DNA of 64,000 nucleotides. Origin: a virus. A model generated the notes under the pieces. The model saw nothing but the letters and a program-made list of their open reading frames with translations, was not told the DNA's origin and did no database searches. The stretch lies in the IMG/VR virus record IMGVR_UViG_3300042391_001456, positions 38,754 through 102,753 of that record; one strand, written 5' to 3'. Position numbers and translations under genes: made by a program. Position 1 is the first letter of the stretch. Every line of letters begins with the position of its first letter. This document shows, piece after piece, positions 19,742-41,062 of the stretch.

Positions 19742-19747
19742 AAACTT

Positions 19748-19779: not shown

Positions 19780-19801
19780 TAGAAATAATTACAAAAACTA
19801 T

Positions 19802-20167: not shown

Positions 20168-20174
20168 CTAAACA

Positions 20175-20202
20175 AAGTCCACTTTTAAAGTGGACTTTTT
20201 TG
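20175..20202 (+). terminator. terminator after the tmRNA
   Basis: aaagtccac-ttttaaa-gtggactttttt. Confidence 0.8.
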
Positions 20203-20222
20203 TTTTAAAAAATATAATTTTT

Positions 20223-20714: not shown

Positions 20715-20769
20715 AACTTATAGTTAAGTTATCTCTATAACTAAAGAAAAAATAAATATAGAAAGTAAT

Positions 20770-21723: not shown

Positions 21724-21726
21724 TTT

Positions 21727-22416
21727 ATGTATAGTGATTTAATAAAAGGAGTTAATGAATTATTAAGTATTGATACAAGAGACTTTTTAATTTTAGATGA
21801 TACTATAACATCTAATAAGAATACTGTAAGTATTTCTGTTCATCTCACAGCAAACGATTCAAATATAGAACAATTTGTTAGTCATGTTAAATATGAAGTT
21901 TTTAGAACTTTATATAAGTACATCTTTAAACAGATGAAATTTAATAATAAATTTATTGATTTGAGAAATCTTAAATTTACTGAGAAATTAAATAGGACTA
22001 GTTTATTTTTATCTCAATTTAAATATAAAAACATATTGAGTAATAGTAGAATATCGACTGAACTACAAGATTCATTATCTTTTCATTTTTCTAAAATGAA
22101 ACCAAATACATCCAGTGATATTTATGAAATAGGTAAGTATTTAGATTTTGAAGCTTATGTTGATCCATATCTTAGATATAGTGATGAAGAGATTTATTTA
22201 TTTAATGATATACGATTTAATATAAATAACTTTCAATATGATGTTATCAGTGAAGCAACTTTTACACCAAGATTGATGATTACTTATGATTTTTATTTTG
22301 AAATATTTGATAATGAAATAGTTTATATCATAGATGATGAGTTTCAAAAATCATTACCAATTCTATTATCTCAAATTAGAGACGAAAAAATAGATAAACT
22401 TATAAATGGCAATTAA
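21727..22416 (+). CDS. degenerate major-capsid-protein paralogue fragment with C-terminal RDEKIDKLI tag
   Basis: YVDPYLRYSD and ISEATFTPRLMI match the MCP segments YVDPYMKYND and ISEATFAPRMLL. Confidence 0.7.
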   Translation: MYSDLIKGVNELLSIDTRDFLILDDTITSNKNTVSISVHLTANDSNIEQFVSHVKYEVFRTLYKYIFKQMKFNNKFIDLRNLKFTEKLNRTSLFLSQFKYKNILSNSRISTELQDSLSFHFSKMKPNTSSDIYEIGKYLDFEAYVDPYLRYSDEEIYLFNDIRFNINNFQYDVISEATFTPRLMITYDFYFEIFDNEIVYIIDDEFQKSLPILLSQIRDEKIDKLINGN

Positions 22417-22666
22417 TCCACCAAATCCATTTCTTGTTAATTCATCGACTAATCAGTCAATTCCACTTCTTATCAATTCATCGACTGGTGAATCGGCACT
22501 TATAGTTGACTCGGATGGTAATGTTATAGTTAAGAAATTAGTTTTATTGGATGATAAAACTGGAAAGAAATGGGAGGTAAAAATTTCTGATGGTGAAATT
22601 TACATGGAGCCTCTTGAAAAATCTGATAAAAGAGATTTTAAAATAAAAAAGATTTTAAATGACTAA
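22406..22666 (+). CDS. hypothetical protein with C-terminal RDFKIKKIL tag
   Basis: 86 aa; overlaps both neighbours. Confidence 0.6.
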   Translation: MAINPPNPFLVNSSTNQSIPLLINSSTGESALIVDSDGNVIVKKLVLLDDKTGKKWEVKISDGEIYMEPLEKSDKRDFKIKKILND

Positions 22667-22982
22667 ACACTTAGATAGAATATACAAAATGGGATTTATT
22701 GTAACATTAGATTGGAATATGTGTTTTACGATAACTTTACCACACTATCATTCTCCAAATTTTGGTCATGAGTGTAATGTTTTAGTCTGTCAATTTGATG
22801 ATACGATCATAAATATAAAATTTTCAGAGGTTGTTGAATATTGCTGTGATATTTTTTATGAATGGTATAATGAATATGTTCATATAATAGATGATACAAC
22901 TCCAGAAGAGTTTAGTAAAATAACTTTAGGTAACATAACAACTCGTGTTAATAGAGACTTAAAATTAGATAAACTACTATAA
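22659..22982 (+). CDS. hypothetical protein with C-terminal RDLKLDKLL tag
   Basis: 107 aa. Confidence 0.6.
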   Translation: MTKHLDRIYKMGFIVTLDWNMCFTITLPHYHSPNFGHECNVLVCQFDDTIINIKFSEVVEYCCDIFYEWYNEYVHIIDDTTPEEFSKITLGNITTRVNRDLKLDKLL

Positions 22983-23015
22983 ACAAAAAGAGAGTCAAAT
23001 GACTCTCTTTTTGTT
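22982..23015. terminator. bidirectional terminator
   Basis: aacaaaaagagagtca-aa-tgactctctttttgtt. Confidence 0.85.
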
Positions 23016-23287
23016 TATCTTAATTTGTTAGTCCAATTACCAATTTTCCTTTGGGTAGTTAAATCTTTCATAGCTCCAAAATTAGCTGTTGGTTTATTCC
23101 AATCTATTAGTTTTCCATTCATGTGTGTTAACATAGGATCAGTACCTCTATATAAATCCATTACTTTTCTATTAGCATCATCTATATCATCTGCTTCAAT
23201 TTCTACCACTTCATCATTTTTATTTAGAAGAGTGTAAGTATAAGTATTTGACTCATTAAAATTAGTCCAATTTTTAATTTTATTCAT
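23015..23287 (-). CDS. small putative internal head protein
   Basis: Probable start MNKIKNWTNFNES (CTS-like). Confidence 0.55.
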   Translation of the reverse strand: MNKIKNWTNFNESNTYTYTLLNKNDEVVEIEADDIDDANRKVMDLYRGTDPMLTHMNGKLIDWNKPTANFGAMKDLTTQRKIGNWTNKLR

Positions 23288-23292
23288 AATAA

Positions 23293-23691
23293 TTATTTTC
23301 TTTTTAACCAATCTTCAAACATCATAGAATAATCACCGTCACTATCTAAACACTCACTTCTATATTGTCTATAAACTTTTAAACAAATTTCCTTTTCCTC
23401 TGGTGTAATTTCACCAGACTCATCATATCTATCAGAAAAAATACCTTCATTAGTTTCTTCTTCCATAGCATCTAACGTATCTTCAATTTCATCAACCGAA
23501 TAATCAGTCAATTTATGAGTAACTGGATTATATTCAGTTCTCTTATTACCTAAATGTTGTTGGTCTTCTGAATTAGGCTTTCTTTGAAGATCTGCCTTTG
23601 CTAATTTTTCCTTATCTGTTGCAAAGTCTTTAAAGTTAGAAACTTTTCTATCACCTACATTAAATGTTGGTTGGTTATCTCTATAATTCAT
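23293..23691 (-). CDS. hypothetical protein
   Basis: 132 aa; KVSNFKDF near the N-terminus. Confidence 0.6.
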   Translation of the reverse strand: MNYRDNQPTFNVGDRKVSNFKDFATDKEKLAKADLQRKPNSEDQQHLGNKRTEYNPVTHKLTDYSVDEIEDTLDAMEEETNEGIFSDRYDESGEITPEEKEICLKVYRQYRSECLDSDGDYSMMFEDWLKRK

Positions 23692-23694
23692 ATT

Positions 23695-24399
23695 TTAATC
23701 TTTATTTTTTAATTTACTATCCAATAGTTTTGCTATATTTGATCCAATAAAATAGTGTATATTATTTATTGTATCAGTTTCAACTGTTTTAATATCATCC
23801 ATAAACTTAAATTGAAATTTATATTTATCAACATCATCTTTATCTTCGGCTTCTATTTTCCAAATAGATAGATCTATAAAGTAATTATTGTTTATGTTTA
23901 TTTTAAAATCAAATGTTGTTTCATGACAAGGAGTTGTTTTAAATTTTGGACTATATTCCACATCAAATATTGAGTAGTCTGTGATTTTTGCTCTTTTCAT
24001 ATAATAGTTAAGAAATAAAGCTGGGGCCTCTATAAAATCTGAAAGTATTTGTATATCTTCTCCAAAGTCATTTGAGTCAATTATATCTTTAATTTTTTCC
24101 TCCAAGTCTATGATATTTTTGAAATCAATTTTATGATAAACGCAATTTATATCATATAGATATAAAAATGTGTTATCAATTAAGTGTCTTTTACTATTAT
24201 CTACTTTGAAAATAAATTTAGTATGTATTATTGTCGCATCCTCTGTATTTAAACCATGTAAGGAAATAATAAGTTTAATAAAATCATCATTTTTTGGCGA
24301 TTCATAAACAATATCCACTGTTGACACCAAACCTTTCTCCTCATCAAATACATCTTTGTATAAGTTTTCTATTTCTGATATATTAATATTCATTTTCAT
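23695..24399 (-). CDS. hypothetical protein
   Basis: About 234 aa; start uncertain. Confidence 0.6.
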   Translation of the reverse strand: MKMNINISEIENLYKDVFDEEKGLVSTVDIVYESPKNDDFIKLIISLHGLNTEDATIIHTKFIFKVDNSKRHLIDNTFLYLYDINCVYHKIDFKNIIDLEEKIKDIIDSNDFGEDIQILSDFIEAPALFLNYYMKRAKITDYSIFDVEYSPKFKTTPCHETTFDFKININNNYFIDLSIWKIEAEDKDDVDKYKFQFKFMDDIKTVETDTINNIHYFIGSNIAKLLDSKLKNKD

Positions 24400-25282: not shown

Positions 25283-25285
25283 AAT

Positions 25286-26035: not shown

Positions 26036-26068
26036 AAAGTATATATTAATAAATAAAAATCTATTTTT

Positions 26069-29000
26069 TCAAGAATATAAAGTACATGCAAATCTAATTC
26101 CTGTAGCTGTTCCAGTTGGAGTTGCTGGCATTGTTGTTATGTTATTTGTATTTGTTATACCAAAAAGTAAATCAGAAATTCCTAAATCATAAACAGTTCT
26201 CCAACTTGTTCCACTTGGATAATATCCAACAACCAAATCTTCACCAACTGATAGGTTTAAATTTTGACCAACTTCTGGAGTTAATAAAATTTCATTAGAA
26301 CCGACTCCACAAACTGCACTACCCTGTCCAATTAGTGTCATTGTTCCACCCAATTTTCCTCTATATAATCCAAATAAAACGGTATCTGATCCAGAAAACC
26401 CCCACAATTTAACTTTAGATACGATTCCACTAACTTCAGAGATAGTTTGATAGTAATATTGAGTAGTGGCTGCTGTTGGAGCTAAATCACACTGACTAAC
26501 ACTCATTGGTGAAAATGAAATATTTAACTTAGACCAATATGCATTACCTAAACTATCAGTTTTTAATACATAGTCACTAACCGCACCTGTTGGTAATTTT
26601 AAACCCAAAACAGATGCGGTTCCAATAACATTTAATATGTTGTTATTAAATGTTAAATTTGATTCAACTGTCGCATTTGGATAAGATCCATTTAGAGTTA
26701 TGATTCCATTATCTGTTGATCCTGTTAGTGTTAGTAACCCAGAAGTTCCACTTGACCCAGAAGTTCCACTTGACCCATTGATCCCATCAATTCCCTTCAC
26801 ACCACTAGTTCCATCGATTCCATTAACACCAGATGTACCATTGATTCCACTAACACCATCAACCCCATTTACACCAGAAGTTCCATTTGACCCAGTTGCT
26901 CCTAGTTGAGTGTACATAACTTGTTGAGCAGTTAATATAATGGACGGAACCGCAGGTCTATTCGGGGTTGATTGTGTTCCAGTAGGTAATATTGATATTG
27001 CGGTATCAGGTGAACTCCAGTATAATTGTATATAATCATTTGATTCTACTGTGTTTATAAAATTCCAAGATGCTATTGTAGTTGATTGACCAGCTATATT
27101 AAATGATGTATTTGATTGTGTTATATATTGTCCATTTTTTGAGAACCATATATCGACCAATCCAGACGCGGAATTAGACTTATTAAAAACCGTAGAGAAT
27201 TGAATATTATAAGTCCCTGACCTACTAAACACCATTTTAGAACCATTTGATAGAGAGACACCATTAGCCTCATATGTAGAGTTTATGTACATCGGCATCG
27301 CAGTACTAGCTGTTAGATTAAATTGATTTGTAGTATCATAAAAAGACCCGTAATAACCCAAAGCACCACCAGCTCCATTTACACCACTCGAACCCGATGT
27401 ACCATTCTGACCACTTGTACCGGATGTACCTGTATTTCCGGAAGTTCCAGAAGTTCCACTACCACCACCTGGATTCGTTGTTTGATAATAAGTATTACCA
27501 TTATTATCAACAACCATATATCTTGTTAAACTTGATGTAGATCCAATTCCTGCAATTGTTAAAGTATTCGTATTTGTTCTACCTTGACCAGTTACGCTAA
27601 ATGTAACCCCACCGCCATTACCACTTTGTACTTCTATTACGTTATCAGAATCAGAACCACTACCTCTCTTAAATGTAACAGCACCTAATGTCGAATTAGT
27701 AACTATTTCAGGAGTTGAAGAGTTATCATAAGCTTGTTGTAATGTCGTTGTTGAAAGTCCACCAGAACCACCTAATATTTCTCCAAATTTTGAAACAAAA
27801 TTAAAACGAGCTTGTGTTGGATCTGATAAGTTTGTAGCATTTTTATTAATTGATAAAATACCAATAAGGATACCATTATCTCTATTATTTACATATTCAA
27901 CAAATAACTCTTCTTGTGTTGCGACAATTGCTTCTGATAATGTTCCATAAACTTTTTGACCATATTGAACTCTTATTAAACCTGTTGGAAATAAATATAT
28001 TCTTTGATTGGTAGATGCGTTTGATCCACCACCAATAATGGTTCTAACACCACCATTATCATAATAAGCAGGATCTATAAAATTTGTATTTGAAAAGGTA
28101 CCACCTGTTTGTGTTCTATAAGCAAATGTTACTGGTGATTGCCCTGATAAAGTAATACTATTTGGATTTAACTCATTAGTAACCCAATTTATACCATTAC
28201 CCCAAAGAGTACCCGCTGATGTATTAAACTCTAAAGTTGTACTATGAGCAGATGGTATAATACCTTGATTTATAAGTTTAATTGGAGTCCATAAATCTCT
28301 CAATGATGAAATAGGAGATACATCATGATCGACTGTATTATTAACATTTAATATGGTTTGTCTATCAGGATGTACTACTTTACCTAAATAAATATTTTGT
28401 CTTCTTTCTTGTGGAGTTGGAAATGTTGTTTGTAAAATCAATGATGAACTTGATGTTAATAAAACATAAGTACTATCAGCGGTATTTAAATAAGGCGTTG
28501 TTATACTTGTAGTGCCACCATAAATAACATTTTGAACATCTGGTTTGGTAGCTGAATCACCAGTATTATTAACAATCCAACCAGAAGCACTTGCTACCGT
28601 AAATGTAGTTGTACTAGTTCTAGTCATTCCCAAATAATGATATACACCACTTGAAATAACATTACCTTCTAATATATTTCTCTCAATATCAGTAAGAGTT
28701 AAATTTAAATCTTCATTATTAATCTCAACTTGAATAGTACCAATTGTTGAACTATTGCTCGTAACGTACCCTATTTGATTTGTTCTTGATGAGAATTTTA
28801 ATGAATCAGTAGAATTTACAAATCCACCAGGAACTATATCAGATAAATAGATAATATCACCAACTGAATATGATGATAGATTAAGTCCTGATAAAATACC
28901 AGCAGCAAGTGCAATACCTTCCGAATTATTGGGTATATCAATATAAGCCAAACCAATAACTTGTTGATTTGTTGTGTGTAAACTTGCTAACGGTAAAGAA

Positions 29001-30238
29001 ACACTAGGAATACCATTATATGATGATTGTATTTTAAGTGCGGTTCCTTTAGGTATAATTGATCCAGTATTATTATACACTCTAACATATCTTTTAGTAC
29101 TTGGATGATTTAATAACCAATTTGAACCATTACTTTCAACAGTAAGTGTATCATAAAATGCTAAGTTATATGATGGTAAATTATCAATTAATTGAGAAGA
29201 AGTAGTTTTTATTGTGATAATACCAGTTCCACTATTTTTAATGATAAATGTTCTACCTGATATTCCAACTGCTGTTGGTAAAGTAACATCAAATGTACCA
29301 TTAACCTCAATATAATAATCGATATTTGTTATTGAATATGTTGATGTTTTGTAAACGTAGTTAGTAGAAACACTTGTTCCTGATGAACCACTAGTTCCGG
29401 AAGTTCCATCTAAACCATTGATGCCGGAAGTTCCATTTGTCCCATCCAATCCATTGATGCCGGAAGTTCCACTTGTTCCATCTAACCCATTGATGCCGGA
29501 AGTTCCATTTGTTCCATCCAATCCATTGATGCCGGAAGTTCCACTTGTTCCATCTAACCCGTTAATACCGGAAGTTCCACTTGTACCATCCAACCCATTG
29601 ATGCCGGAAGTTCCACTTGCCCCATCCAATCCATTGATGCCGGAAGTTCCACTTGACCCATCTAAACCATTAATGCCGGAAGTTCCATTTGTTCCATCTA
29701 ACCCATTGATGCCGGAAGTTCCACTTGACCCATCTAAACCATTAATGCCGGAAGTTCCATTTGTTCCATCTAAACCATTAATGCCGGAAGTTCCATTTGT
29801 TCCATCTAACCCATTGATGCCGGAAGTTCCACTTGTTCCATCTAACCCGTTAATGCCGGAAGTTCCACTTGTCCCATCCAACCCGTTGATGCCGGAAGTT
29901 CCTGATATTCCAATTAGCATTTGTTGCCAATGAGCAGTATCTATATCTGGTGAAGACCATGGTGATGATGGATTATCCGAAATACATAAATAAGCATTTC
30001 CGTTATAAGTAACAAAATCGTAATAGAAATACATCATAACAGAATCCCATTCTCCTTGAAAAATCATTGAAATTCCTGTTGATCCAGTTGGACCTTGTGG
30101 ACCAACGGAATATGATCCCGGTCCTAAATCAAGAGGATTTCCAAATCCATCATAGTATAAATTGGGAGAACCGTGTATTACTTGAACTATTCTACCATAC
30201 GTCGATGATACAGTTACTCCGGTAAAATCATAACTCAT
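26069..30238 (-). CDS. long tail fibre / appendage protein with collagen-like G-X-Y repeats
   Basis: 1389 aa, rich in Gly/Ser/Thr; three G-X-Y tracts; beta-rich domains. Confidence 0.75.
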   Translation of the reverse strand: MSYDFTGVTVSSTYGRIVQVIHGSPNLYYDGFGNPLDLGPGSYSVGPQGPTGSTGISMIFQGEWDSVMMYFYYDFVTYNGNAYLCISDNPSSPWSSPDIDTAHWQQMLIGISGTSGINGLDGTSGTSGINGLDGTSGTSGINGLDGTNGTSGINGLDGTNGTSGINGLDGSSGTSGINGLDGTNGTSGINGLDGSSGTSGINGLDGASGTSGINGLDGTSGTSGINGLDGTSGTSGINGLDGTNGTSGINGLDGTSGTSGINGLDGTNGTSGINGLDGTSGTSGSSGTSVSTNYVYKTSTYSITNIDYYIEVNGTFDVTLPTAVGISGRTFIIKNSGTGIITIKTTSSQLIDNLPSYNLAFYDTLTVESNGSNWLLNHPSTKRYVRVYNNTGSIIPKGTALKIQSSYNGIPSVSLPLASLHTTNQQVIGLAYIDIPNNSEGIALAAGILSGLNLSSYSVGDIIYLSDIVPGGFVNSTDSLKFSSRTNQIGYVTSNSSTIGTIQVEINNEDLNLTLTDIERNILEGNVISSGVYHYLGMTRTSTTTFTVASASGWIVNNTGDSATKPDVQNVIYGGTTSITTPYLNTADSTYVLLTSSSSLILQTTFPTPQERRQNIYLGKVVHPDRQTILNVNNTVDHDVSPISSLRDLWTPIKLINQGIIPSAHSTTLEFNTSAGTLWGNGINWVTNELNPNSITLSGQSPVTFAYRTQTGGTFSNTNFIDPAYYDNGGVRTIIGGGSNASTNQRIYLFPTGLIRVQYGQKVYGTLSEAIVATQEELFVEYVNNRDNGILIGILSINKNATNLSDPTQARFNFVSKFGEILGGSGGLSTTTLQQAYDNSSTPEIVTNSTLGAVTFKRGSGSDSDNVIEVQSGNGGGVTFSVTGQGRTNTNTLTIAGIGSTSSLTRYMVVDNNGNTYYQTTNPGGGSGTSGTSGNTGTSGTSGQNGTSGSSGVNGAGGALGYYGSFYDTTNQFNLTASTAMPMYINSTYEANGVSLSNGSKMVFSRSGTYNIQFSTVFNKSNSASGLVDIWFSKNGQYITQSNTSFNIAGQSTTIASWNFINTVESNDYIQLYWSSPDTAISILPTGTQSTPNRPAVPSIILTAQQVMYTQLGATGSNGTSGVNGVDGVSGINGTSGVNGIDGTSGVKGIDGINGSSGTSGSSGTSGLLTLTGSTDNGIITLNGSYPNATVESNLTFNNNILNVIGTASVLGLKLPTGAVSDYVLKTDSLGNAYWSKLNISFSPMSVSQCDLAPTAATTQYYYQTISEVSGIVSKVKLWGFSGSDTVLFGLYRGKLGGTMTLIGQGSAVCGVGSNEILLTPEVGQNLNLSVGEDLVVGYYPSGTSWRTVYDLGISDLLFGITNTNNITTMPATPTGTATGIRFACTLYS
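29408..29911 (-). repeat. 14 tandem 36-bp coding repeats (GTSGTSGINGLD)
   Basis: Visible directly; atgccggaagttcc recurs every 36 nt on the + strand. Confidence 0.95.
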
Positions 30239-30307
30239 AGTATTATATATTAAGTAACATGTCTCTAAACAAGGATTATTTAATATATAGTTAAAAAATT
30301 TATTACA

Positions 30308-30706
30308 ATGCCGCTAATTTATTCCACATATTTAAATGAAACATTGAATTGGTCAGATGTTGAATATTTAAATGGTAAAAAATATTTAAAATGGGAAGAA
30401 GTAAATCTCAAATGGGAAAATGTTGATTTAAATTGGGATGAGGTTTTTATTTTACTCGAGATTGCCAAAAAAAGAGGTGGTGGATCTGGATATCCATACA
30501 GAGATGAATATGAAAAGAATAATCCATGGAAACAAATTCGAAAAGATTTTGGAGAGGAAGATACCAAAAAAGTAATAAAACTTTATTGTAAAGTAAATGG
30601 AATTGATTATGAAATGGTTAAAGAATCTAAAAAAGAAGTTAAAGTATTAGTAAATGAATTTGATAGATTTTTAAATGAAACAATTAATGTAAAAATTGAT
30701 TTTTAA
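30308..30706 (+). CDS. hypothetical protein with Trp-spaced repeats
   Basis: LNWSDV, LKWEEV, LKWENV, LNWDEV; late-type motif upstream. Confidence 0.6.
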   Translation: MPLIYSTYLNETLNWSDVEYLNGKKYLKWEEVNLKWENVDLNWDEVFILLEIAKKRGGGSGYPYRDEYEKNNPWKQIRKDFGEEDTKKVIKLYCKVNGIDYEMVKESKKEVKVLVNEFDRFLNETINVKIDF

Positions 30707-30723
30707 AAAAATATATATAACTT

Positions 30724-31392
30724 ATGGAAAAAGATGTATTTAAATTTGAAGATTTTCTTTCAGGTAGCAAATTAGATGAATTGAAAAAAATGAAATCAGA
30801 ACTTCTAAAAGAAGGTCTTTTCAATGATGATGAAATAAATAATAATTCTGATTTAGATTTTAGTGATGATGAAATAATTCAGGAATTTAATCCATATAAT
30901 GTGAATATGGAAAAAGATACAACAAATGATGATATCAACAATGTTGAATTCGATGAGAATGATGATGATATTGAGAATATCGAAACAGACGAATCTAATA
31001 TAGAATATAATTCAGATGAATCTTACGTTTTGTACAAAGATAAAGCTGAAGATTTTGTTTGTGATATCGCTGTGGAGGGGGTTAGTCAAAAAGACACCGA
31101 GGTTAGATTAATAGTAGAGTCTACTGATTGGACACTAATGTTTAAAGGTGAGATAAGAAATGGTAAATGTATTATACCATTGAAGAAATTAGCCATCTTA
31201 AATGAAGGACAGAGAGGTAACATTAAATTAGAAGTTAATGCTGATGGTAACTTATTTACACCTTGGGAAGATGAGTTTGTTGTTAAAGTTTCAAAAAAGG
31301 TAACAGTTAGTTTAAACGAAAATAAAAAAGATAAAAAACTACAAAATAAAAATAGTGATATAAAAGTTAATGTAAATAAAAAGAGACCTTAA
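30724..31392 (+). CDS. hypothetical late protein
   Basis: 222 aa; acidic N-half, beta-rich C-half. Confidence 0.6.
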   Translation: MEKDVFKFEDFLSGSKLDELKKMKSELLKEGLFNDDEINNNSDLDFSDDEIIQEFNPYNVNMEKDTTNDDINNVEFDENDDDIENIETDESNIEYNSDESYVLYKDKAEDFVCDIAVEGVSQKDTEVRLIVESTDWTLMFKGEIRNGKCIIPLKKLAILNEGQRGNIKLEVNADGNLFTPWEDEFVVKVSKKVTVSLNENKKDKKLQNKNSDIKVNVNKKRP

Positions 31393-31407
31393 AAGGTCTC
31401 TTTTTTT
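31378..31407. terminator. bidirectional terminator
   Basis: aaaaagagacctt-aa-aaggtctcttttt. Confidence 0.85.
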
Positions 31408-33724
31408 ATATCATATATTCCAATTTTTTAACCCATCCATTTGATTTTAATGTGTTAATAATCATTTCACCAGTTATTGATTTTGTACATTCAAATTGTC
31501 TTTCTGTACCCTTGTAATCTGGACACCAATTCCAATCACCTGGATCAAACTTATGTCTATTGAAACATCCATTACAAACAGAATTGTTAAATATTCTAAT
31601 AACATTATCCCCTTCAAATTCAGATATTGGATCACTAAACCCAGATATTAAAACAATCGGAACATTTAATGACCATGCCAACCAACTAAGACCTGATCCA
31701 ATACCGATGAAAAACTCACATGATAACATAACATCAATAAGATTTTCCATAGATCCTTCTGGTAATTTAACAACACCATTTGGATAAAAATTACCCATGT
31801 AACCATCACCTTCTTTAGATAATATCATAACTTCATATCCTTGTAGATTTAGATAATCAACTACTTCTTGCCAACCATTTGAGTTATTCCAATATTTGGT
31901 TTGAGCAGTTGAATGGAATCCAATACCAACTCTTTTCTTTTTTTCTATTTTGATTCTATCCGGTCCAATATTCGCTTTAACATATTCAAAATCCAAACCC
32001 AATATATCAGCTGCTGTTTTACCAAGTGGCATTTTCTTAAAATCATTTGGATTTTTCACACTAGAAAATTCTCCATTATCATCATAATACCACCCAATAG
32101 AATACATAGCATATAAATTATTAACTGGAGTTCCAGGATCTACAAATTCTATATTTGGATATTTTTCTTTAAATAAATTGTTCATAAATGTTGAACATAT
32201 CATTTCACAATTCCATTTCTTTCTAAATTCTTCAATATATGGAAACCATGCTAATGTATCACCCAGTGATTTGGAATCTAAAGAAACATAAACTCTCTTA
32301 CCAGTTGGATTACAAACTTCATCATGTATTATCTCACCATCCAAATAAACAATACATCTCCATTCTTGAAAATATTTTTTATTTACTTTAGTCCACATAT
32401 TAGATTTTATGGTAGTTCTATATTCACATATATTTTCTGTGTTAAAGAATTCAACTAAAAATTCTCTATCTTCATTTGATATCACTTCCACAACAGGACC
32501 ATCTATATAATAGTTGATTATATTTATACTTTTATATTTCTCATTTAAAACTCTATTGGATTTTTCTATATTATCATAAAAATCCAATAATTTGGATTCA
32601 AAATCTCCCTTCTCAGTTGAGAATATAAAATTATTAATTTCATGAGCATCATTTATTTCCTTAACACAGTGAAATCCAACAACCTCACTTTTATCATAAG
32701 GTATAAATGATTGTGATGAGTGACCATATCCATATTTATTCATATCCAACAAACAAACTCCACTATCAGAAGATAGATATTCACTATTAATATGATTATA
32801 AAAAAACTTAACATCACTCAATTTCAAAACATTTACAAAAAACCAAAATGATTTAGGCTTAACTCCTAATTTCCACATTAAGCAATTTAATATCAATTCA
32901 TCATGCATAAATTCTAATTTTCTGATTGAATCTATTTCATTTGACTGGCAAATCTCATCCCATTTTTTAAATAAATCTTTATGAGATTTATTAAATATCA
33001 CAATGTTCGTAATACATTGTGGGTATTTTTGTTTTGGTAGATCCATTGTTTCGGTAAGAAGTGGACCTGGTATATAACTACCATGAGCAATTGTATAATT
33101 CCAGGCTCCTTTTTGGAAAATAGGACCATCTTCTATTTCATTCAGATATTTAAATGTCTCGTCAATATTTGGTCTAATTTGTATATCAGCATCTAAAAAG
33201 ACAACACCTCTATAACCCATTTCTAGTACATCTAAAAATATTCTAGGTTTTAAAAATTGCATAAATTGGTTATCATTCATATCACCATCTATATACATTC
33301 TCTTATTTGTTAAATTATAATATTCTAAATTAGAATCATAATTTATGGAGTAATGGTATATCTTTTCATCGGAGTATCTATCCAATCCTATTATTAATTG
33401 TTCAACCAATGGTTGAAATTTCTCATTTGAGAAAACAACATAACATTTTGATTTATCACCAATTTTTTTATTGAAAATTAATTTATGATTTGAGTATATT
33501 TTTAAATCAAAAACTTCATTTTTAACATTTTCATAAAAACTATGAATCGAAAAATTCAATGTTTTTATATCACCTGGCTTAAAATCTTCAACATGATTTA
33601 TTAAATTCAAATAGAATATATCAGTTAAAGTTATTAAACAATTCTCATAATAATTATTTGTTAGGTTTTCTATTTTTATAGAGTCATCAAACAACTCTAT
33701 TTTAAAATCTCTATTTCCAAGCAT
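31406..33724 (-). CDS. two-domain glycosyltransferase: GT-A (DAD) plus TibC/AAH-like protein O-heptosyltransferase domain
   Basis: VFLDADI; SKSLGDTLAWFPY, FFIGIGSGLSWLAW, ISGFS, CNGCFN...WCP...FECTKSI. Confidence 0.8.
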   Translation of the reverse strand: MLGNRDFKIELFDDSIKIENLTNNYYENCLITLTDIFYLNLINHVEDFKPGDIKTLNFSIHSFYENVKNEVFDLKIYSNHKLIFNKKIGDKSKCYVVFSNEKFQPLVEQLIIGLDRYSDEKIYHYSINYDSNLEYYNLTNKRMYIDGDMNDNQFMQFLKPRIFLDVLEMGYRGVVFLDADIQIRPNIDETFKYLNEIEDGPIFQKGAWNYTIAHGSYIPGPLLTETMDLPKQKYPQCITNIVIFNKSHKDLFKKWDEICQSNEIDSIRKLEFMHDELILNCLMWKLGVKPKSFWFFVNVLKLSDVKFFYNHINSEYLSSDSGVCLLDMNKYGYGHSSQSFIPYDKSEVVGFHCVKEINDAHEINNFIFSTEKGDFESKLLDFYDNIEKSNRVLNEKYKSINIINYYIDGPVVEVISNEDREFLVEFFNTENICEYRTTIKSNMWTKVNKKYFQEWRCIVYLDGEIIHDEVCNPTGKRVYVSLDSKSLGDTLAWFPYIEEFRKKWNCEMICSTFMNNLFKEKYPNIEFVDPGTPVNNLYAMYSIGWYYDDNGEFSSVKNPNDFKKMPLGKTAADILGLDFEYVKANIGPDRIKIEKKKRVGIGFHSTAQTKYWNNSNGWQEVVDYLNLQGYEVMILSKEGDGYMGNFYPNGVVKLPEGSMENLIDVMLSCEFFIGIGSGLSWLAWSLNVPIVLISGFSDPISEFEGDNVIRIFNNSVCNGCFNRHKFDPGDWNWCPDYKGTERQFECTKSITGEMIINTLKSNGWVKKLEYMI

Positions 33725-35261
33725 ATATAAGTCCTCCTTTGTTTTCTATTGGATATTCACCATCCATAAATTTAAATTTATAATCATTAGTAGTTAATTT
33801 TTTAATTATCTCCAATATTTTATAATTATCATTATTATGATATTCAATTAAAAAATTATTCACTTTCAATAAATTATCATCTGATATTGTATTAAAGAGA
33901 TCATACTCAGCTCCCTCAATATCAATTTTCATTAAATCAATATAATCTTCATCAATATAATCCTCAATTAATGTATTTGGTGTTATACAACTAACTATAT
34001 TTTTAGTTCTATTTTCAACTTTATTATTAGCATCTATCTCTGATATACTAGATACCATAGAACAATCAGAATCTTCGAAAAAGTCTATCACACCATCATG
34101 TGAATAAATTGCCTGATGTATAACTTTATTATTTGAATTTTTATCAAAATTATTTTTTAATAGTTTTATCATCCTAGTATCAGCATCAACTAAATAACAT
34201 TTTATAGATCTTTCCATAAAGAAAATGCTGGATATTCCATAATTAGCACCCAAGTCAACAAAATTTCTAATTTTATCAAAATTTAACTCAGTATAAATTT
34301 TATAGAAATCGTTTAAATATCCAAATAAAAAATCTATATTTTCATTTTTATAAGTTTTAAACTTTTTACAAAAAACATGTTTGTAATCAAAATCATCAAT
34401 TAGTATATTTTTTCTAATATTATTATCTCCGATTTTTGTTTCTAAATAATATCCATTTCTATTATCAATTCCATTATTGAAAAATGGTGGAATAAACCAA
34501 TATATGTATCCTGATTTTAAATTAAAATTAGTATTATTATAAATACACAAATCCGTGTAATAATCAAATACTTTTATATGGAAATCTTCTATATTTGGAT
34601 TTGTATTTTTTAGATAAAATTTAGCATCATCTTTTGAATACCAAAACTCAATATCGTTATAATTATAATAAAGAATGTCTATTTTATTTGGTCCATAAAA
34701 TTCATATTTATCTTTGAAAGAATAAATTTTATCCAAAACTCCATTTTGTCTAAAGGAATATTCCCAACAATTCTCTAAAACAGTATTTAATGTAAACATC
34801 TCGTCGATAGTTCGATAAAAATTAATATTTTCTAATAAAAAATCTATTTTAGAATAAAAAGAATTTGTACAAATAATATTATCACCCCAATTACATGAAA
34901 CAAATTGATATTCATCAACTCTCCAATCTAAAAATCTATTAACATCATTTATCTCAACATCATAAGTTACTTTATAAGTCCATTCAATATCCTGATCTTT
35001 GAGATGTTTGATAGCCAATTCAATCAAATTACTTTCAGCAACTCCGTGTGAATATTTTCTATTATCGATTACATTCTTTGATTGATAAATATAGAAATCA
35101 CATAATTCCTGTAAGTCACTACTTATAGGCGAGTGACTTGATAATACTAAGTAATAATCTTCTTTACTTAGAGTCTCAATATTTTTTTTGAGTAAGTTTA
35201 TACTTTCCTCCGATGTATGAAAGTATGTTATTATAAAACCTATTTTAGTATCTTTCTTCAT
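33711..35261 (-). CDS. FkbM-family methyltransferase with N-terminal extension
   Basis: VDLGANYG, IDLMKIDIEGAEY, IEYH. Confidence 0.82.
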   Translation of the reverse strand: MKKDTKIGFIITYFHTSEESINLLKKNIETLSKEDYYLVLSSHSPISSDLQELCDFYIYQSKNVIDNRKYSHGVAESNLIELAIKHLKDQDIEWTYKVTYDVEINDVNRFLDWRVDEYQFVSCNWGDNIICTNSFYSKIDFLLENINFYRTIDEMFTLNTVLENCWEYSFRQNGVLDKIYSFKDKYEFYGPNKIDILYYNYNDIEFWYSKDDAKFYLKNTNPNIEDFHIKVFDYYTDLCIYNNTNFNLKSGYIYWFIPPFFNNGIDNRNGYYLETKIGDNNIRKNILIDDFDYKHVFCKKFKTYKNENIDFLFGYLNDFYKIYTELNFDKIRNFVDLGANYGISSIFFMERSIKCYLVDADTRMIKLLKNNFDKNSNNKVIHQAIYSHDGVIDFFEDSDCSMVSSISEIDANNKVENRTKNIVSCITPNTLIEDYIDEDYIDLMKIDIEGAEYDLFNTISDDNLLKVNNFLIEYHNNDNYKILEIIKKLTTNDYKFKFMDGEYPIENKGGLIYAWK

Positions 35262-36858
35262 TATAAACTTTATCTAATATTGAATAACCAGCCGATTGTT
35301 TTGTCGGTGGAGTTTCAAATATTCCTATTTTATACTTATTTAACTTTTCCGAAAAAAGTAAATCAGTTACATTCCATTTTGAATTTCTATACATTTCATC
35401 AATTACGTCAAAACTCTTTTTAGGAATTAAATATGCATGTGCTCCATAAAAACCATTAACGGTCCAATATATCGAGTTTTTATCAATAATATTAACACCG
35501 TTATGAAACCCAAATGAAAACATCATCAAATCGGTTTTATTTAATATTTCACATGCTAACTTTACACTATCGACAAATTCTTTAGTTTCTACATCGATAA
35601 TAGCATCACATTCAAATATTAAAATATAATCAACATTATCATTCAATCCTCTATAAAAAGCATCTTTGTGAGCCAAATAACAACCATAATGACCCGGTGT
35701 TAGTTTACCCCCTGGTTCCATACTAATTTTATCAGGATACTCACATGTTTCTGATGGTGGTAAACTAACCCATCTTTTATTAACCAATGCTTTGTAATTA
35801 ATTCCAAATTTTTCCAATTTAGTTAATGATATTTGTGATTGAACTTCTCTCTCACTATCAATATCTGTTATCATATGATATGCTGAAATTTCTGATACTT
35901 TTTCATTTTTTTGAATATTCAATCCATTTCTTATCAATTCAACATTCATATTAATATCATTTGTTAAAAATTTAATATTTTTAAAATTTGAAAAATCCTG
36001 ACCATATGTTTTCAAGTTGTACATTAATACTGGTAGGTCATATGAAGTGGCTTCCAAAACTGATAGAGGTCTATTTTCCAATTTAGAAGTAAAGATAAAT
36101 AAATCAACACATCTATAAAATCTATGTAAATCAGATCTTTCTCCCCATATTTTACAATTATTAGGAGTATTCTCAATTAGAGGTTTCCAATAATCAACAA
36201 AATTATCTGCCATATTACCAAAGAAGTGAAACATAACATTATCACCTTCCATCTTTTTAGCATATTCAAATATTTCATGTTGATTTTTATTAAAATTGAA
36301 TAATCCAACATTCATAATATGTTTTTGATTGGGGTTTAACCCTAATTCAATTAAATTATTCTCTCTGTATAATTTAGAATCAATTTCAAACTCTATAACC
36401 TCTGAGAAATTAGATATTTCATTATACTGTGTCCAATTTATATTAGACACAAACATTGTTTTATCGGCTATAAATTTTTTATCATTTTTATTAAATCCAG
36501 TTCCGTGTGTTGTATCTGTTATATAAAAATTTAAATCGTTTTTCAAATCAACAAATATTGAATTTAATAAATCATGACTTACAAAAGTCTCTGGGAATTC
36601 TTCAAAATGAATAACTTTTGGTTTGATACTACTAATTAATGATAATATTTCATTTTTATTATCACTTAAAGTTATTAACCTATTACTTAATAAACTTTTT
36701 AACTCATTTTTTTGAACAACTAGTCTACCACCTGTAATATCATCCCATTCTATTAAATAGATATTCCACTTTTTTAAAAGAATTTTTATTTTTTTGAGTA
36801 AGAATTGTGGTAACCCACCAGTTGATAAGTGTGGTGTTATAATTAACATTTTATCCAT
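35245..36858 (-). CDS. two-domain glycosyltransferase (GT4-like plus GT25-like)
   Basis: PHLSTGGLPQF, NVGLF..NKNQ, FTSKLENRPLSVLEA; GHYGCYLAH, IFECDA, GAHAYLI. Confidence 0.8.
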   Translation of the reverse strand: MDKMLIITPHLSTGGLPQFLLKKIKILLKKWNIYLIEWDDITGGRLVVQKNELKSLLSNRLITLSDNKNEILSLISSIKPKVIHFEEFPETFVSHDLLNSIFVDLKNDLNFYITDTTHGTGFNKNDKKFIADKTMFVSNINWTQYNEISNFSEVIEFEIDSKLYRENNLIELGLNPNQKHIMNVGLFNFNKNQHEIFEYAKKMEGDNVMFHFFGNMADNFVDYWKPLIENTPNNCKIWGERSDLHRFYRCVDLFIFTSKLENRPLSVLEATSYDLPVLMYNLKTYGQDFSNFKNIKFLTNDINMNVELIRNGLNIQKNEKVSEISAYHMITDIDSEREVQSQISLTKLEKFGINYKALVNKRWVSLPPSETCEYPDKISMEPGGKLTPGHYGCYLAHKDAFYRGLNDNVDYILIFECDAIIDVETKEFVDSVKLACEILNKTDLMMFSFGFHNGVNIIDKNSIYWTVNGFYGAHAYLIPKKSFDVIDEMYRNSKWNVTDLLFSEKLNKYKIGIFETPPTKQSAGYSILDKVYNEERY

Positions 36859-36928
36859 AATAGGATTTATATTTTTTATATATAAATTAGTTTAATAAAC
36901 AAAAAAACAATTTACTATTATAATAATT

Positions 36929-38260
36929 ATGAAGAATTTGAAAACATTAAATGAGTTAGAAACGGAAAACTTTTTAAATTCAATTTTTAAAAGTGAAATT
37001 ACAATATTTGAAGACATACAAGGTAGTAAAATATGGGTAAATTGGGATGGTGATAAATTTCAAATAAAACCAAAATCAATTAATAGCGAATCTATTAATC
37101 TAATAGATCTAGCTATGCAAAATTATTATAATCCAGCAATAGATTATTTCAACTCATTAGATTTAAGAGTTAAATCACTTTTAAATAGAAAGTGGTGGTT
37201 TTGTTTTGAATATTTTCCAGATAATCAACCAGCAAATATTGAATATGATAAAGTCCCTAAAAATAAATTAATACTAACAACCATTTTTAAAAATGGTAAA
37301 TATGATATTAATATTGAAGAAATTGATGAATATTCTAGATTATTGAATGTTGATATGATACCTGTTATATTTAATGGTATTCTTACCGAAAAGATGAAAG
37401 AAGCTATAAAATACTTTTTAAATACAAGTGAGGAAGATTTAGAGTATGTATTTGGTGATAAATCATTCACCTTCTTCTTTTATAAAATATTAAATCCTCT
37501 TTCAGAAAATTCATTTTTAATGGATGGCGACTTTCAAAAAAACATAGAAAAATTAATAATTAGATCACAAGGAAATGATGTTTCATTTCAATTATTAAAT
37601 CCTCTTTATAAAAAGATGAACGATTCTAATAAGACTGATTATGTTGAGATTTATTCACTACTAATAATAAATTTTTTAAATTTTTGCCAATCTGTAAATT
37701 TAGACGATCTAAAATTAAAAGGTTATAAAAGAGATGAAATTTATATTAATTTAATTTCAAAATTATATAATTTCTATTTAAGTGACGTAAAAGAAGACCT
37801 CATAAGCTTTGATTTTAATATACCAGAGTTCTTTGATAAGGAGAAATTTAAAATAAACAAAGAGTTGATATCTAATAAGATGACGAAATCTTACATAAGT
37901 GAAAATCCAAAACTAGAATACATATTCAAAATTATACTAAGCTCCTTTAATATAAAGAGAAAAAAAGCTATTGGACTTTTTAGTGAAAATACAGTTAAGT
38001 TATTTAATCTATTCGTTGATAAAATAAATGGAATTATTGATATGCATTTAAATAAAACTATAGAAATAGAATTAACCAGAACTGGTTTATTAGACTTTGA
38101 TGAGTATATAGATTTTAAAGTTGATACGGATGCATCAGGTCAAATATACCCTGATATATTTGATGAGATACAAAAAGGTGAAGAAGAAGAGAAGAAAAAG
38201 AAAGGAAAAGGTGGTAAAATGCCAATGCCTGGAGATGAATCTAAAATGTCCTTAAAATAA
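36929..38260 (+). CDS. hypothetical protein with degenerate RNA-ligase-like N-terminal domain
   Basis: IFEDIQGSKI at the position of motif I (EKxxG), FCFEYF, IPVIFNG, IEKLIIR. Confidence 0.5.
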   Translation: MKNLKTLNELETENFLNSIFKSEITIFEDIQGSKIWVNWDGDKFQIKPKSINSESINLIDLAMQNYYNPAIDYFNSLDLRVKSLLNRKWWFCFEYFPDNQPANIEYDKVPKNKLILTTIFKNGKYDINIEEIDEYSRLLNVDMIPVIFNGILTEKMKEAIKYFLNTSEEDLEYVFGDKSFTFFFYKILNPLSENSFLMDGDFQKNIEKLIIRSQGNDVSFQLLNPLYKKMNDSNKTDYVEIYSLLIINFLNFCQSVNLDDLKLKGYKRDEIYINLISKLYNFYLSDVKEDLISFDFNIPEFFDKEKFKINKELISNKMTKSYISENPKLEYIFKIILSSFNIKRKKAIGLFSENTVKLFNLFVDKINGIIDMHLNKTIEIELTRTGLLDFDEYIDFKVDTDASGQIYPDIFDEIQKGEEEEKKKKGKGGKMPMPGDESKMSLK

Positions 38261-38421
38261 TGAAAGAGACCTCTATTAAAGCTATTTGGACTAAAGAAAT
38301 GCATGAAGATCTAATTAAACAAAAATCTTTAAATTTAGATTTTGAAAAACATTTAGTATCAGTATTAAAGGCTGAATTGAGAAAGAATAAGATTAATAAA
38401 ATTTTCAAAAAGAAGAACTAA
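38260..38421 (+). CDS. 53 aa gp23-like capsid peptide with C-terminal RKNKINKIF tag (not in ORF track)
   Basis: MKETSIKAIWTKEMHEDLIKQKSLNLDFEKHLVSVLKAELRKNKINKIFKKKN; ATG overlaps the upstream TAA. Confidence 0.55.
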   Translation: MKETSIKAIWTKEMHEDLIKQKSLNLDFEKHLVSVLKAELRKNKINKIFKKKN

Positions 38422-38445
38422 AACATGTAATATGATATAATATTT

Positions 38446-39660
38446 ATGAAAGTTAAAAGCTTTAAAAGAGAAATATCTATAAGATCTCAATTAAAAAATA
38501 AAAAAAATAGTCTTCAATTTTTACCAATTTCTTTAGAAGAAGTATCTAAGTGTAAAAATTTCATCTATAAAGAAAAAAAATTAAAAACATCATATCTAAT
38601 CGATATAACACATAATCTAATATTAAAATATTATTTCAAAAAAGAAAATAGATTTAGTATTATGTCAACTATATTAAAAGAAAAGTATGGACATTTATAT
38701 AATTATTATATAAATTATTTACTAGAAAATAATATAATTGAACTTGTAAGAAATTATAAAGCAGGTGAAAATGCTAGGGTTTATAAACTAAATGAATCTA
38801 TATTAAAATCCGCAATTAAAAGATATCCAAATTCGGATAAAGTTCTTTTGAGAAAATATAAAAATAATGTCTCTCAAATAGAACAAGGTATTAAAAATAA
38901 TCTAATTGATGATGATATTAAATTAAAATTAGTAGATGATTTATTTTCGATTGATATTGATTTCTATAGATCTATATTTTATTTAGATAATTTAAAATCA
39001 GATGATGATGATATCTATAATAAAAATAGATATTCAGTTGAGTGTATAAGTGATAAACATATTTTTTACCATTTTGATAACTATGGTAGAATGCACACCA
39101 ACTTTACAATTTTAAAATCTTTTATTAGAAAGAATTGTCTTTTAATTGAGGGTGAAGAAACTCATGAGTTAGACATTAAAAATAGCCAACCTTTATTTTT
39201 AGCAAAAATAATAATAGATTCAAAAACTCTATGGGTTAAAAATGATGAATTAGAATTATTTAAATACTTAACATTAAATGGATTATTTTATCAATATTTA
39301 ATGGATCATCTTAAAATATCAGATAAGAAAAAAGCAAAAGAAATAACATATAAAGTTCTATTTGGTAAAAATGCATCAAATAGCAAATCTGATAAAATAT
39401 TTAAAGAATTGTTCCCTACAATACACAATTTTATAAAATTGTATAAAAAAGAAAGAGGTGATTATAAAATATTAGCATATGAGTTACAAAAAGCTGAATC
39501 AAATTTGATTTATAATAAAATAATACGAGAAATAATGAGTATTTATCCTGAAATAAAATTAGTAACTGTTCATGATAGTATCATAATAACTAAAAAATGG
39601 AGACCTCATGTAGAAAATATTTTTAATAAACATATAATCAGAGAATTTGATTTAAAATAA
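38446..39660 (+). CDS. minimal family-A-like (PolA/T7-type) polymerase domain protein
   Basis: YGRMH, LDIKNSQP (motif A), KAKEITYKVLFG (motif B), LQKAES, TVHDSI (motif C). Confidence 0.65.
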   Translation: MKVKSFKREISIRSQLKNKKNSLQFLPISLEEVSKCKNFIYKEKKLKTSYLIDITHNLILKYYFKKENRFSIMSTILKEKYGHLYNYYINYLLENNIIELVRNYKAGENARVYKLNESILKSAIKRYPNSDKVLLRKYKNNVSQIEQGIKNNLIDDDIKLKLVDDLFSIDIDFYRSIFYLDNLKSDDDDIYNKNRYSVECISDKHIFYHFDNYGRMHTNFTILKSFIRKNCLLIEGEETHELDIKNSQPLFLAKIIIDSKTLWVKNDELELFKYLTLNGLFYQYLMDHLKISDKKKAKEITYKVLFGKNASNSKSDKIFKELFPTIHNFIKLYKKERGDYKILAYELQKAESNLIYNKIIREIMSIYPEIKLVTVHDSIIITKKWRPHVENIFNKHIIREFDLK

Positions 39661-39694
39661 TTAATATATAAATAAATATTTTAATATATAAATC

Positions 39695-40228
39695 ATGACA
39701 GCTCTAGAAAATAAAAATTCATCATATTTGATAATTTCTTCAAAGAGATTAAATGAGATAATATCTATACTTTATGCTAAAGAATATAAAATTATACCAA
39801 TAAATGAGTATTTCAATGGTAATTTTGAAGAATCTATAATAGCATGGGGAGTTGATAACGAATCTCTTAGAAGAGATTCAATTTTTATTCTAAATCAATT
39901 ACATGAAGATTCAGCCATAATTAAATATAGTGGTGAAGATGGCGCAAAAAAAGTAAGCTTTAATGGTTCTGAATACCCACTTGATATAATATTATTTAAT
40001 ACAGATTCTAACTATAAATCATATATACACAATGGTATATCCTTCTCATTCAAAGAATCTAAAAGATATTGGGTACCAAAAACTATGAACGATTTAAAAA
40101 TAGGGATGGTAGTTGAATACATGAACAATAATAAATGGTTTGAGAAAAAAGTTTTAAATCCACAAGATGAGTGGGAAAAACTTTATAAGTTATTAATTAA
40201 ATACGACAAACTAAGAGTATCTGCATAA
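39695..40228 (+). CDS. hypothetical protein
   Basis: 177 aa; late-type motif upstream. Confidence 0.6.
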   Translation: MTALENKNSSYLIISSKRLNEIISILYAKEYKIIPINEYFNGNFEESIIAWGVDNESLRRDSIFILNQLHEDSAIIKYSGEDGAKKVSFNGSEYPLDIILFNTDSNYKSYIHNGISFSFKESKRYWVPKTMNDLKIGMVVEYMNNNKWFEKKVLNPQDEWEKLYKLLIKYDKLRVSA

Positions 40229-40257
40229 AAAAAAGACATCAAATGATGTCTTTTTTT
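40228..40257. terminator. bidirectional terminator
   Basis: aaaaaaagacatc-aaat-gatgtcttttttt. Confidence 0.8.
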
Positions 40258-41062
40258 ATTTTATACTAAACCAACAATATTGTCTATGCCAAGAAAAATT
40301 AGTTTCTTTTAAGAAAAATCTCATATCATTTGGGAAAGTCATTAAAATAATACCTGGTTGATCTGCATTATTACCTCTACAAACAATAATTTTATCAGGG
40401 TCAATTCCCGGTTCTACAATAAATAACATACCATTTATCATACCATTCTCATCTAAATTATTAATAAGTGATGGATATTTACTAATTACGTTATTTCCAA
40501 CTAAAACAGATTTTCCGGAACCAATTCTACCATATTGAGCGATTATATTAGAAGCCATCATTATTTTAGTAATCAATCTACGAGAATTAATTTCATCATT
40601 TTCTGAATTGGTTTTATTAGGATCATTAGTTGGTATAAATGTTAAAGATGATGTTGGAAGATTATATAATGTTTTGGCATTTTGAGTTTGTTTTTCTAAA
40701 AAGTCAATAACTTGAGAATAAACATCTTCATAACTAATAAATTGTTTACCTGTAACATTCATAGACATTATTTTAGGAGCAACAACTCCCATATATTGAG
40801 TTACATTCTTATATTGAGAAGAAACATCTAAATCTTTTCTTTCTGGTAAAATATGTCTATTTTCCCATTCAGACTCATCTTTATCATCTAATAAAATATC
40901 TATAGCTAAATCTCTATTACGAGATTTTACCTCTCTCATATATTCTTCATCGTCTTCAGATATCATCTCCATATACATAATCTGTGATTGTGGAAGAGAT
41001 TTTTTATCCAATTCTTCTTTGAATGAAGTTATTAATTTTAATTTATCTTTAAAAGTTATCAT
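40256..41062 (-). CDS. degenerate major-capsid-protein paralogue fragment
   Basis: RRLITKIMMASNIIAQYGRIG and RGNNADQPGIIL match the MCP segments RKLITKIAHASNFIATEGRVG and RKNNADQPGIIF. Confidence 0.75.
   Translation of the reverse strand: MITFKDKLKLITSFKEELDKKSLPQSQIMYMEMISEDDEEYMREVKSRNRDLAIDILLDDKDESEWENRHILPERKDLDVSSQYKNVTQYMGVVAPKIMSMNVTGKQFISYEDVYSQVIDFLEKQTQNAKTLYNLPTSSLTFIPTNDPNKTNSENDEINSRRLITKIMMASNIIAQYGRIGSGKSVLVGNNVISKYPSLINNLDENGMINGMLFIVEPGIDPDKIIVCRGNNADQPGIILMTFPNDMRFFLKETNFSWHRQYCWFSIK

Follow-up and report, generated by a model that had tools for sequence, protein, structure and literature searches.

We analysed 64,000 nucleotides of viral DNA (the window, by which we mean this whole stretch), i.e. 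bases 38754-102753 of the 102.7-kb IMG/VR virus record IMGVR_UViG_3300042391_001456, whose estimated completeness is 18%. The window has a G+C content of ~27% and is part of a megaphage whose major capsid protein (MCP) is of the T4 gp23 type. Apart from the MCP gene it holds three open reading frames (ORFs), encoding proteins of 229, 53 and 268 residues, which are derived from this MCP and contain a short peptide that we call the tag or, in one case, a stretch like it. The four genes are the following.

15045-16736, plus strand: MCP of the T4 gp23 type, 563 residues, parent of the three derived genes (Pfam Gp23, E = 2.2e-28)
21727-22416, plus strand: compact MCP paralogue of 229 residues, with an E-loop-like hairpin, the spine helix, strands of the A and P domains and a C-terminal tag (profile and BLASTP)
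38260-38421, plus strand: mini-gene of 53 residues, with a gp23 strand and the first half of the spine helix, then the tag RKNKINKIF (residues 41-49)
40256-41062, minus strand: compact MCP paralogue of 268 residues, modelled as a complete HK97 fold and translationally coupled to the glycosyltransferase gene upstream (BLASTP, profile and AlphaFold2 model)

Judged from their sequences, the three ORFs are functional, conserved genes that descend from the phage's own gp23-type MCP. Their capsid origin is established by the BLASTP and profile matches of the two larger proteins and by the Pfam Gp23 matches of the mini-gene's orthologues. The capsid-like residue motifs that an initial annotation of this DNA had read in the three ORFs are all present, and the alignments to the MCP that it proposed for the two larger ones are significant. 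For the 229-residue protein, BLASTP against the MCP gives E = 8e-12 over MCP residues 440-533. A shallow alignment of its family matches the MCP with a profile E-value of 3.6e-10, and a 111-member alignment compared with the MCP family by hhalign reaches a probability of 99.6% and E = 1.4e-23 over 157 columns, pairing residues 46-191 with MCP residues 335-539, i.e. the spine helix, the A domain and the last P-domain strands. For the 268-residue protein the corresponding values are E = 3e-10 by BLASTP, covering MCP residues 387-513, and E = 2e-14 for a family profile from a shallow alignment. The 53-residue ORF taken alone is not significant (BLASTP against the MCP, E = 0.14; Pfam Gp23, E = 0.15, 11.8 bits against a cut-off of 24.4 bits), but all seven members of its family match Pfam Gp23 (PF07068, best 1e-11), and the family profile matches T4 gp23 residues 254-298 in the PDB with E = 2.6e-4. 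The resemblance to a conserved gp23 segment claimed for it is thus upheld at the level of the family.

The initial annotation regarded all three as truncated fragments, which is wrong for the two larger genes: they encode miniaturised HK97-fold proteins that keep the spine helix and the core of the A and P domains. The AlphaFold2 model of the 268-residue protein, built on a 50-sequence alignment, has a predicted local distance difference test score (pLDDT) of 81.6 and a predicted TM score of 0.75, and its leading Foldseek matches in the PDB and BFVD, a check that the annotation had proposed, are all HK97-fold capsid proteins. The model suggests a complete HK97 fold, for which T4 gp23 and gp24 are the nearest structures; the alignment starts at gp23 residue 106. 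Absent from this protein are the first 100 residues of the MCP and its residues 130-300. The latter region is where the MCP alignment varies, and by the T4 structures we take it to be the insertion domain at the E-loop. In its place the model shows a conserved helix and acidic stretch (38-68) followed by a disordered loop, enclosed by two long E-loop-like strands (residues 25-35 and 94-104). BLASTP of the N-terminus of the protein against MCP residues 91-140 gave no alignment, so that the first E-loop strand is matched by eye only. The AlphaFold2 model of the 229-residue protein is poor (pLDDT 50.6), so that its fold assignment rests on the profile alignment, which begins at the spine helix and extends as far as the last strands; the N-terminal 300 MCP residues, including the propeptide and the insertion region, are missing from it.

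Neither of the two compact proteins matches Pfam Gp23, searches against Pfam and PHROGs returned nothing beyond weak matches to phrog_28442, sequence searches of the PDB with shallow profiles of the compact families gave no match, and the ESM Atlas gave no usable one.

Conservation, selection and genomic setting

Within the phage collection, the MCP is closest to those of the uncultured megaphages LR745206 and LR756502 (635-642 kb), at 68-70% identity; more distant relatives are found in a 735-kb genome, in Lak phages and in PTm1 and MA9V, which are cultured jumbo phages of Bacteroidota. Metagenomes hold more than 2,000 close relatives, of which the best 120 are 71-100% identical, and across the clade the identity of the MCP is 72-97%.

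The derived genes form families of their own. The 229-residue protein has 31 close members of 226-239 residues and, at 50% identity clustering and E ≤ 0.001, 220 cluster representatives, nearly all of 215-270 residues and aligning end to end. The 268-residue family has at least 100 members with 34-96% identity, the full-length ones being 230-271 residues long. Orthologues of the mini-gene (57-71 residues) occur at the identical place in six IMG/VR contigs, the window's copy being the shortest and most diverged of its family. We estimated the ratio of non-synonymous to synonymous substitution rates (dN/dS) by the Nei-Gojobori method. It is 0.23-0.46 for the 268-residue gene against five metagenome relatives and 0.52 for the 229-residue gene against one IMG/VR relative, where the synonymous rate (dS, 0.38) is lower and dN/dS higher than for the neighbours. 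Both larger genes are thus below 1 yet above every neighbouring gene (0.03-0.35).

One could suppose that the three ORFs are simply debris, i.e. functionless partial duplicates of the capsid gene in decay, and the shortened 53-residue copy with its noisy dN/dS of 0.5-1.1 would agree with this. Hundreds of full-length family members with fixed lengths, invariant residues and conserved positions speak against it, as do the dN/dS values of the larger genes and the lack of frameshifts and internal stops in the capsid-derived genes. Neutral decay, which the initial annotation had itself named as a result that would count against a functional set, is excluded by these data, and we regard debris as an extremely improbable explanation.

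The locus of the 268-residue gene has a history different from that of its surroundings. In IMG/VR contigs whose neighbouring genes match those of the window at 50-87% identity (L005-L015), the identity of the 268-residue protein is no more than 38-44%, compared with ~74% for the MCP. In five metagenome contigs (L018-L022), for whose selection similarity to the 268-residue protein was the criterion, its identity rises to 81-89% and its dS is 0.10-0.49, while the neighbours are 67-75% identical with a dS of 0.9-2.1. The discordance between gene and backbone is real despite that selection, and indicates deeply diverged alleles moving between backbones at this locus. Such allele diversity and exchange, together with the retained capsomer-contact motifs, could be expected of weapons against other phages, i.e. 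mimics that would be built into the capsids of co-infecting relatives and poison them, as a form of superinfection exclusion to which the phage's own MCP would be resistant. We found no evidence for such self-resistance, and since the MCP is so well conserved in the clade, the poison would be likely to affect the phage's own capsid as well. The tag, and the tagged proteins that have nothing to do with capsids, would also be left unexplained, and we consider this explanation very unlikely.

The claim that the derived genes lie away from the head module needs to be qualified. They are dispersed, and the 268-residue gene is 23.5 kb from the MCP gene on the opposite strand, but the 229-residue gene is just 5 kb downstream of the MCP gene on the same strand, though in a separate operon bounded by terminators. 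Terminator-like hairpins at 19707-19735, 20174-20198 and 22979-23018, the last one bidirectional (the scan found five against 0.6 expected), split the MCP gene from a unit made of the 229-residue gene and the four genes below, with the hairpin at 20174-20198 bounding the operon upstream.

20190-20714, plus strand: NADAR gene (Pfam NADAR, 2.7e-24)
20770-21723, plus strand: D12-class Dam DNA methyltransferase gene, directly upstream of the 229-residue gene (Pfam MethyltransfD12, 3.2e-11)
22406-22982, plus strand: two small tagged ORFs of 86 and 107 residues, the last genes of the operon, with the tags RDFKIKKIL and RDLKLDKLL

The order NADAR, Dam and 229-residue gene is kept in two further IMG/VR contigs. 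No tRNA or tmRNA was found by ARAGORN in window positions 19000-23500. Read-through or an alternative genetic code, which would give a 548-residue fusion with the upstream ORF in the same frame, was ruled out because that ORF is a complete Dam methylase. Untagged members of the 229-residue family occur in two cultured phages. The homologue in Tenacibaculum phage PTm1 (ORF-116, BBI90508.1) is flanked by a MazG-like gene and a helicase, and that in Chryseobacterium phage MA9V-2 (gene 215, MA9V2_215, WNN12464.1) is 3.3 kb past the MCP gene. In LR756500, one 229-like gene adjoins one 268-like gene.

The other two derived genes converge on each other in the following region.

36929-40228, plus strand: conserved block of a 443-residue gene, the 53-residue mini-gene, a 404-residue gene and a 177-residue gene, convergent with the 268-residue gene
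41049-41804, minus strand: GT2-family glycosyltransferase gene, whose stop overlaps the start of the 268-residue gene by 14 nt (Pfam Glycos_transf_2, 2.4e-8)

The order within the block is the same in the six contigs with mini-gene orthologues, which lie there too between the 443-residue and 404-residue genes. The flanking genes of the block have no Pfam or PHROG match, and no capsid similarity was found in the 443-residue and 404-residue neighbours, which had been considered as the remainder of a split capsid gene. Of 7 related loci, 6 likewise have the GT2 gene next to the 268-residue gene. A frameshift fusion of 41049-41804 with 40256-41062 was ruled out, the upstream gene being the GT2 glycosyltransferase. 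The non-structural company that the initial annotation had pointed out is therefore borne out, with NADAR and Dam methylase beside one compact gene and a glycosyltransferase beside the other.

The link to the glycosyltransferase leads to another explanation, in which the HK97 fold has been put to a new use outside the capsid, e.g. as a small cage or in a role associated with nucleic acids or with glycans, and the likeness to the MCP reflects ancestry only. In sequence the proteins are closest to the phage's own MCP and not to the encapsulins, no cargo-type partner is seen, and the tagged sub-fragments would have no explanation, which makes such a use quite unlikely.

Several other features of the window were observed. 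A 1389-residue collagen-repeat protein resembling a tail fibre adjoins a cluster of glycosyltransferases (GT9, GT1, GT25 and GT2 types) with an FkbM-type methyltransferase (26069-36858 and 41049-41804), which may relate to glycosylation of the fibre or the virion. A gp32-like single-strand-binding protein gene (11710-12690) stands directly before that of a 707-residue prohead protease (12837-14960), which matches Pfam S77 at residues 21-137 and the PHROG head maturation protease at residues 5-369 and then has an extension of ~340 residues. A CorA-type Mg2+ transporter gene is at 4849-5835 (minus strand). The 522-residue ORF at 51601-53169 covers no more of a family B DNA polymerase than its exonuclease domain and the beginning of its polymerase domain, and the polymerase may be split or interrupted. 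A palindromic motif like TTAATATATA is located 10-45 nt upstream of the start codons of more than 25 genes (e.g. 16869, 17864, 26069-30238 on the minus strand, 39695 and 60817). It precedes early-type and late-type genes alike, including those for ribonucleotide reductase, an exonuclease and the collagen-like fibre, and is probably the general promoter core of the phage and not specific to a class. Among other promoter motifs, TATAAATA is not enriched and TCTATAAAA is mildly enriched.

The shared tag and further capsid pieces

The tag has the consensus R-D-x-K-I-D-x-L-L. Its occurrences in the window other than those listed above are the following.

22378-22404, plus strand: C-terminal tag RDEKIDKLI of the 229-residue protein, residues 218-226
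40868-40933, minus strand: internal tag-like module of the 268-residue protein, residues 44-65, EVKSRNRDLAIDILLDDKDESE, between two E-loop-like strands
9542-9766, minus strand: small tagged ORF of 74 residues ending in RDEKIDQIIDK
42253-42789, 44009-44311, 45626-45856, 47152-47490 and 48771-49349, plus strand: five more small tagged ORFs

The motif R-[DEN]-x-K-[IL]-[DNK]-x-[IL]-[LIF] has 8 matches in the 78 non-overlapping ORFs of the window against 0.03 in residue shuffles, a ratio whose exact value is inflated since the motif was written after the sequences had been seen. Seven of the eight matches are no more than 6 residues from the stop codon. A looser scan of the whole record yielded ten ORFs in which the motif is close to the C-terminus, none of them outside the window.

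The initial annotation had placed the tag on all three capsid-derived proteins, and this is true of the C-termini of the 229-residue and 53-residue proteins, whereas the 268-residue protein has an internal tag-like stretch instead. The segment R.LITKI that had been read as its tag is ordinary MCP homology. In the 111-sequence alignment of the 229-residue family, with 24% mean column identity, R218 is the sole invariant column, and K221 and I222 are among the four near-invariant ones; the 53-residue family likewise ends in the tag. The two compact families can be aligned with each other in one region only, where residues 39-67 of the 268-residue protein pair with the C-terminal tag of the 229-residue protein (hhalign E = 3.7e-4); within this module R50, L52, D55 and L58 show little or no variation.

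The remaining tagged proteins are of small size, for the most part acidic and not related to one another, and no other tagged ORF of the 102-kb record is a paralogue of a larger gene detectable by BLAST. The tag of the ORF at 42253-42789 is kept in orthologues of only 38-55% identity. It was considered whether the tag might be a by-product of a DNA signal for the downstream gene. The tag is found before a terminator, before long intergenic gaps and where there is no downstream gene, and its arginine is encoded by both AGA and CGT, which rules out such a signal and indicates that selection acts on the peptide itself.

Searched as a DNA pattern, the strict core of the tag occurs 13 times in the complete LR745206 against 0 in a reversed control, not at all in LR756501, LR756500 and PTm1, and once in Lak-A1, which marks the tag as a trait of the sub-clade nearest to the window. 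In a 436-kb contig (L011, IMGVR_UViG_3300042261_002385), about ten small same-strand ORFs at 12700-18900 end in R-x-x-K-[IL]-x-x-[IL]-G-[IL], and the tag thus comes in lineage-specific dialects.

We also ran profile searches on the complete 635-kb genome LR745206. It holds the MCP, orthologues of the window's capsid-derived genes and the following additional pieces, while the 102-kb record to which the window belongs has no capsid-derived genes beyond the three described.

LR745206.1 291407-291880: 157-residue ORF with the MCP propeptide and N-arm, then a tag stretch very like that of the 268-residue protein (E = 4.7e-25)
LR745206.1 255010-255237: 75-residue ORF with MCP residues 502-547 and the tag (E = 2e-7)
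LR745206.1 440206-440298: second spine-helix piece
LR745206.1 554784-555284: weaker match to the Gly/Ala-rich linker of the MCP, which may be low complexity

The capsid-derived genes of the window are therefore part of a larger group of such genes in this clade of megaphages, and most genes of the group are tagged.

Possible functions

We tentatively favour, with a confidence slightly short of even, the reading that the capsid-derived proteins are soluble mimics of the MCP and not building blocks of the shell. The capsid-like part would bind whatever partners recognise that surface of the MCP, either the MCP itself and the assembly machinery or a host factor, and docking of the mimic to one common, putative partner would be the task of the tag. 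The outcome could be a control of the phage's own head assembly or, in the decoy version put forward by the initial annotation, a blunting of the capsid sensing by the host. Four lines of evidence suggest mimicry. The sub-domain pieces of 53-157 residues cannot be subunits of a lattice, the tag joins the set to many small proteins that are not capsid-derived, the operon partners are of the counter-defence or DNA-modification type, and the genes evolve unlike the very conserved MCP. Fast evolution of this kind fits a role in conflict or as a mimic better than that of a conserved shell subunit.

A bolder form of this idea is bait-and-tag counter-defence, in which copies of pieces or cores of the phage's most conserved proteins, all with one short tag, would bind the host receptors that sense these proteins, and a single neutralising effector of the phage or the host would receive the complex by way of the tag. 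We offer it as a speculation that is unlikely to be right.

Several observations weigh against soluble mimics and would fit components of the shell. One or both compact paralogues would then be a vertex (penton) or other minor capsid protein, analogous to T4 gp24, the small pieces would fill contacts at special positions, and the tag would be a helix docking to the capsid or scaffold. T4 gp24 is a direct precedent, showing that an MCP paralogue can simply be a vertex protein, and the structural matches include a 297-residue protein of Vibrio phage nt-1 that is labelled 'head vertex protein'. The A- and P-domain motifs that are most conserved in the MCP are retained by both compact proteins and could just as well be used for capsomer formation, and the nearest structures to the fold modelled for the 268-residue protein are gp23 and gp24 themselves. 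The 229-residue family sits a few kb downstream of the MCP gene in the window, in LR745206 and in MA9V-2, like gene 24 in T4, and the distribution of the genes is core across the clade. In the complete LR745206 the profile search found no full-length gp24-like paralogue or second MCP, which leaves the vertex role in that genome without an assigned protein. The N-terminal piece encoded there retains a putative protease site of the MCP propeptide, an HSINE/N motif that we read as such by the [LI]-x-E rule of T4, which hints at entry into the prohead.

Other data do not sit well with a place in the shell. The 229-residue gene shares a separate operon with NADAR and Dam, its PTm1 copy is among replication genes, and the 268-residue gene diverges far more than the MCP and exchanges its alleles. 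Both compact genes exceed all their neighbours in dN/dS, and the same tag is carried by many small acidic proteins without capsid likeness. The insertion region, a highly variable part of the MCPs themselves, is absent. Overall we consider shell components a somewhat unlikely explanation, which nonetheless deserves to be weighed seriously beside that of soluble mimics.

On either reading, the tag suggests a single putative hub protein, by which a considerable part of this clade's small proteins would be read. If the capsid-derived proteins are soluble mimics, they would represent a new kind of phage regulator or counter-defence made from the surfaces of structural proteins; if they are parts of the shell, they would show how 600-kb phages build the special positions of very large heads. 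The untagged homologues in the cultured phages PTm1 and MA9V-2 make the question directly testable.

Comparison with known systems

Capsid proteins are known to trigger anti-phage systems, as in CapRel and in Lit with the Gol peptide of gp23, and by analogy such host sensing of capsid surfaces makes a mimic or decoy conceivable. A limited literature search, which included capsid paralogues and decoys, found no capsid decoy encoded by a phage and no tagged set of capsid-derived genes of this kind.

The tag can be likened, as a functional analogy only, to short terminal docking peptides such as the capsid-targeting sequence of T4, the clamp-binding tails of T4 gp43, gp55 and gp33, and the tethering tails of the SspB/ssrA type. 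It is likewise a motif of 9 residues at the extreme end of many unrelated proteins and more conserved than their bodies, but its sequence resembles none of these peptides. The T4 capsid-targeting sequence is N-terminal and cleaved, whereas the three proteins and the other tagged ORFs share no N-terminal motif, their shared motif being C-terminal.

Encapsulins and minimal HK97-fold capsids have no sequence relation to the proteins described here. No cargo gene or cargo-loading peptide is seen adjacent to the genes, whose neighbours are a glycosyltransferase, a methylase and NADAR. Compared with the T4 gp23 family (PF07068), the three window proteins lack the propeptide, and the mini-gene is reduced to a single strand-plus-helix element.

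The duplication of a capsid gene to yield a vertex protein, as with T4 gp24, is textbook knowledge. T4 gp24 (PDB 1YUE) is close to full size, with 427 residues in its PDB record; it has an insertion domain, and its gene follows gene 23 immediately within the late head cluster. The compact genes described here encode 229 and 268 residues, without the insertion region and the N-terminal part; they belong to other operons, change more quickly than the MCP and are linked to a tag found on unrelated proteins. What sets the present case apart from the gp24 duplication is a conserved set of miniaturised capsid folds and single-element pieces that is dispersed over the genome, evolves faster than the MCP and has in common with unrelated small proteins the same tag.

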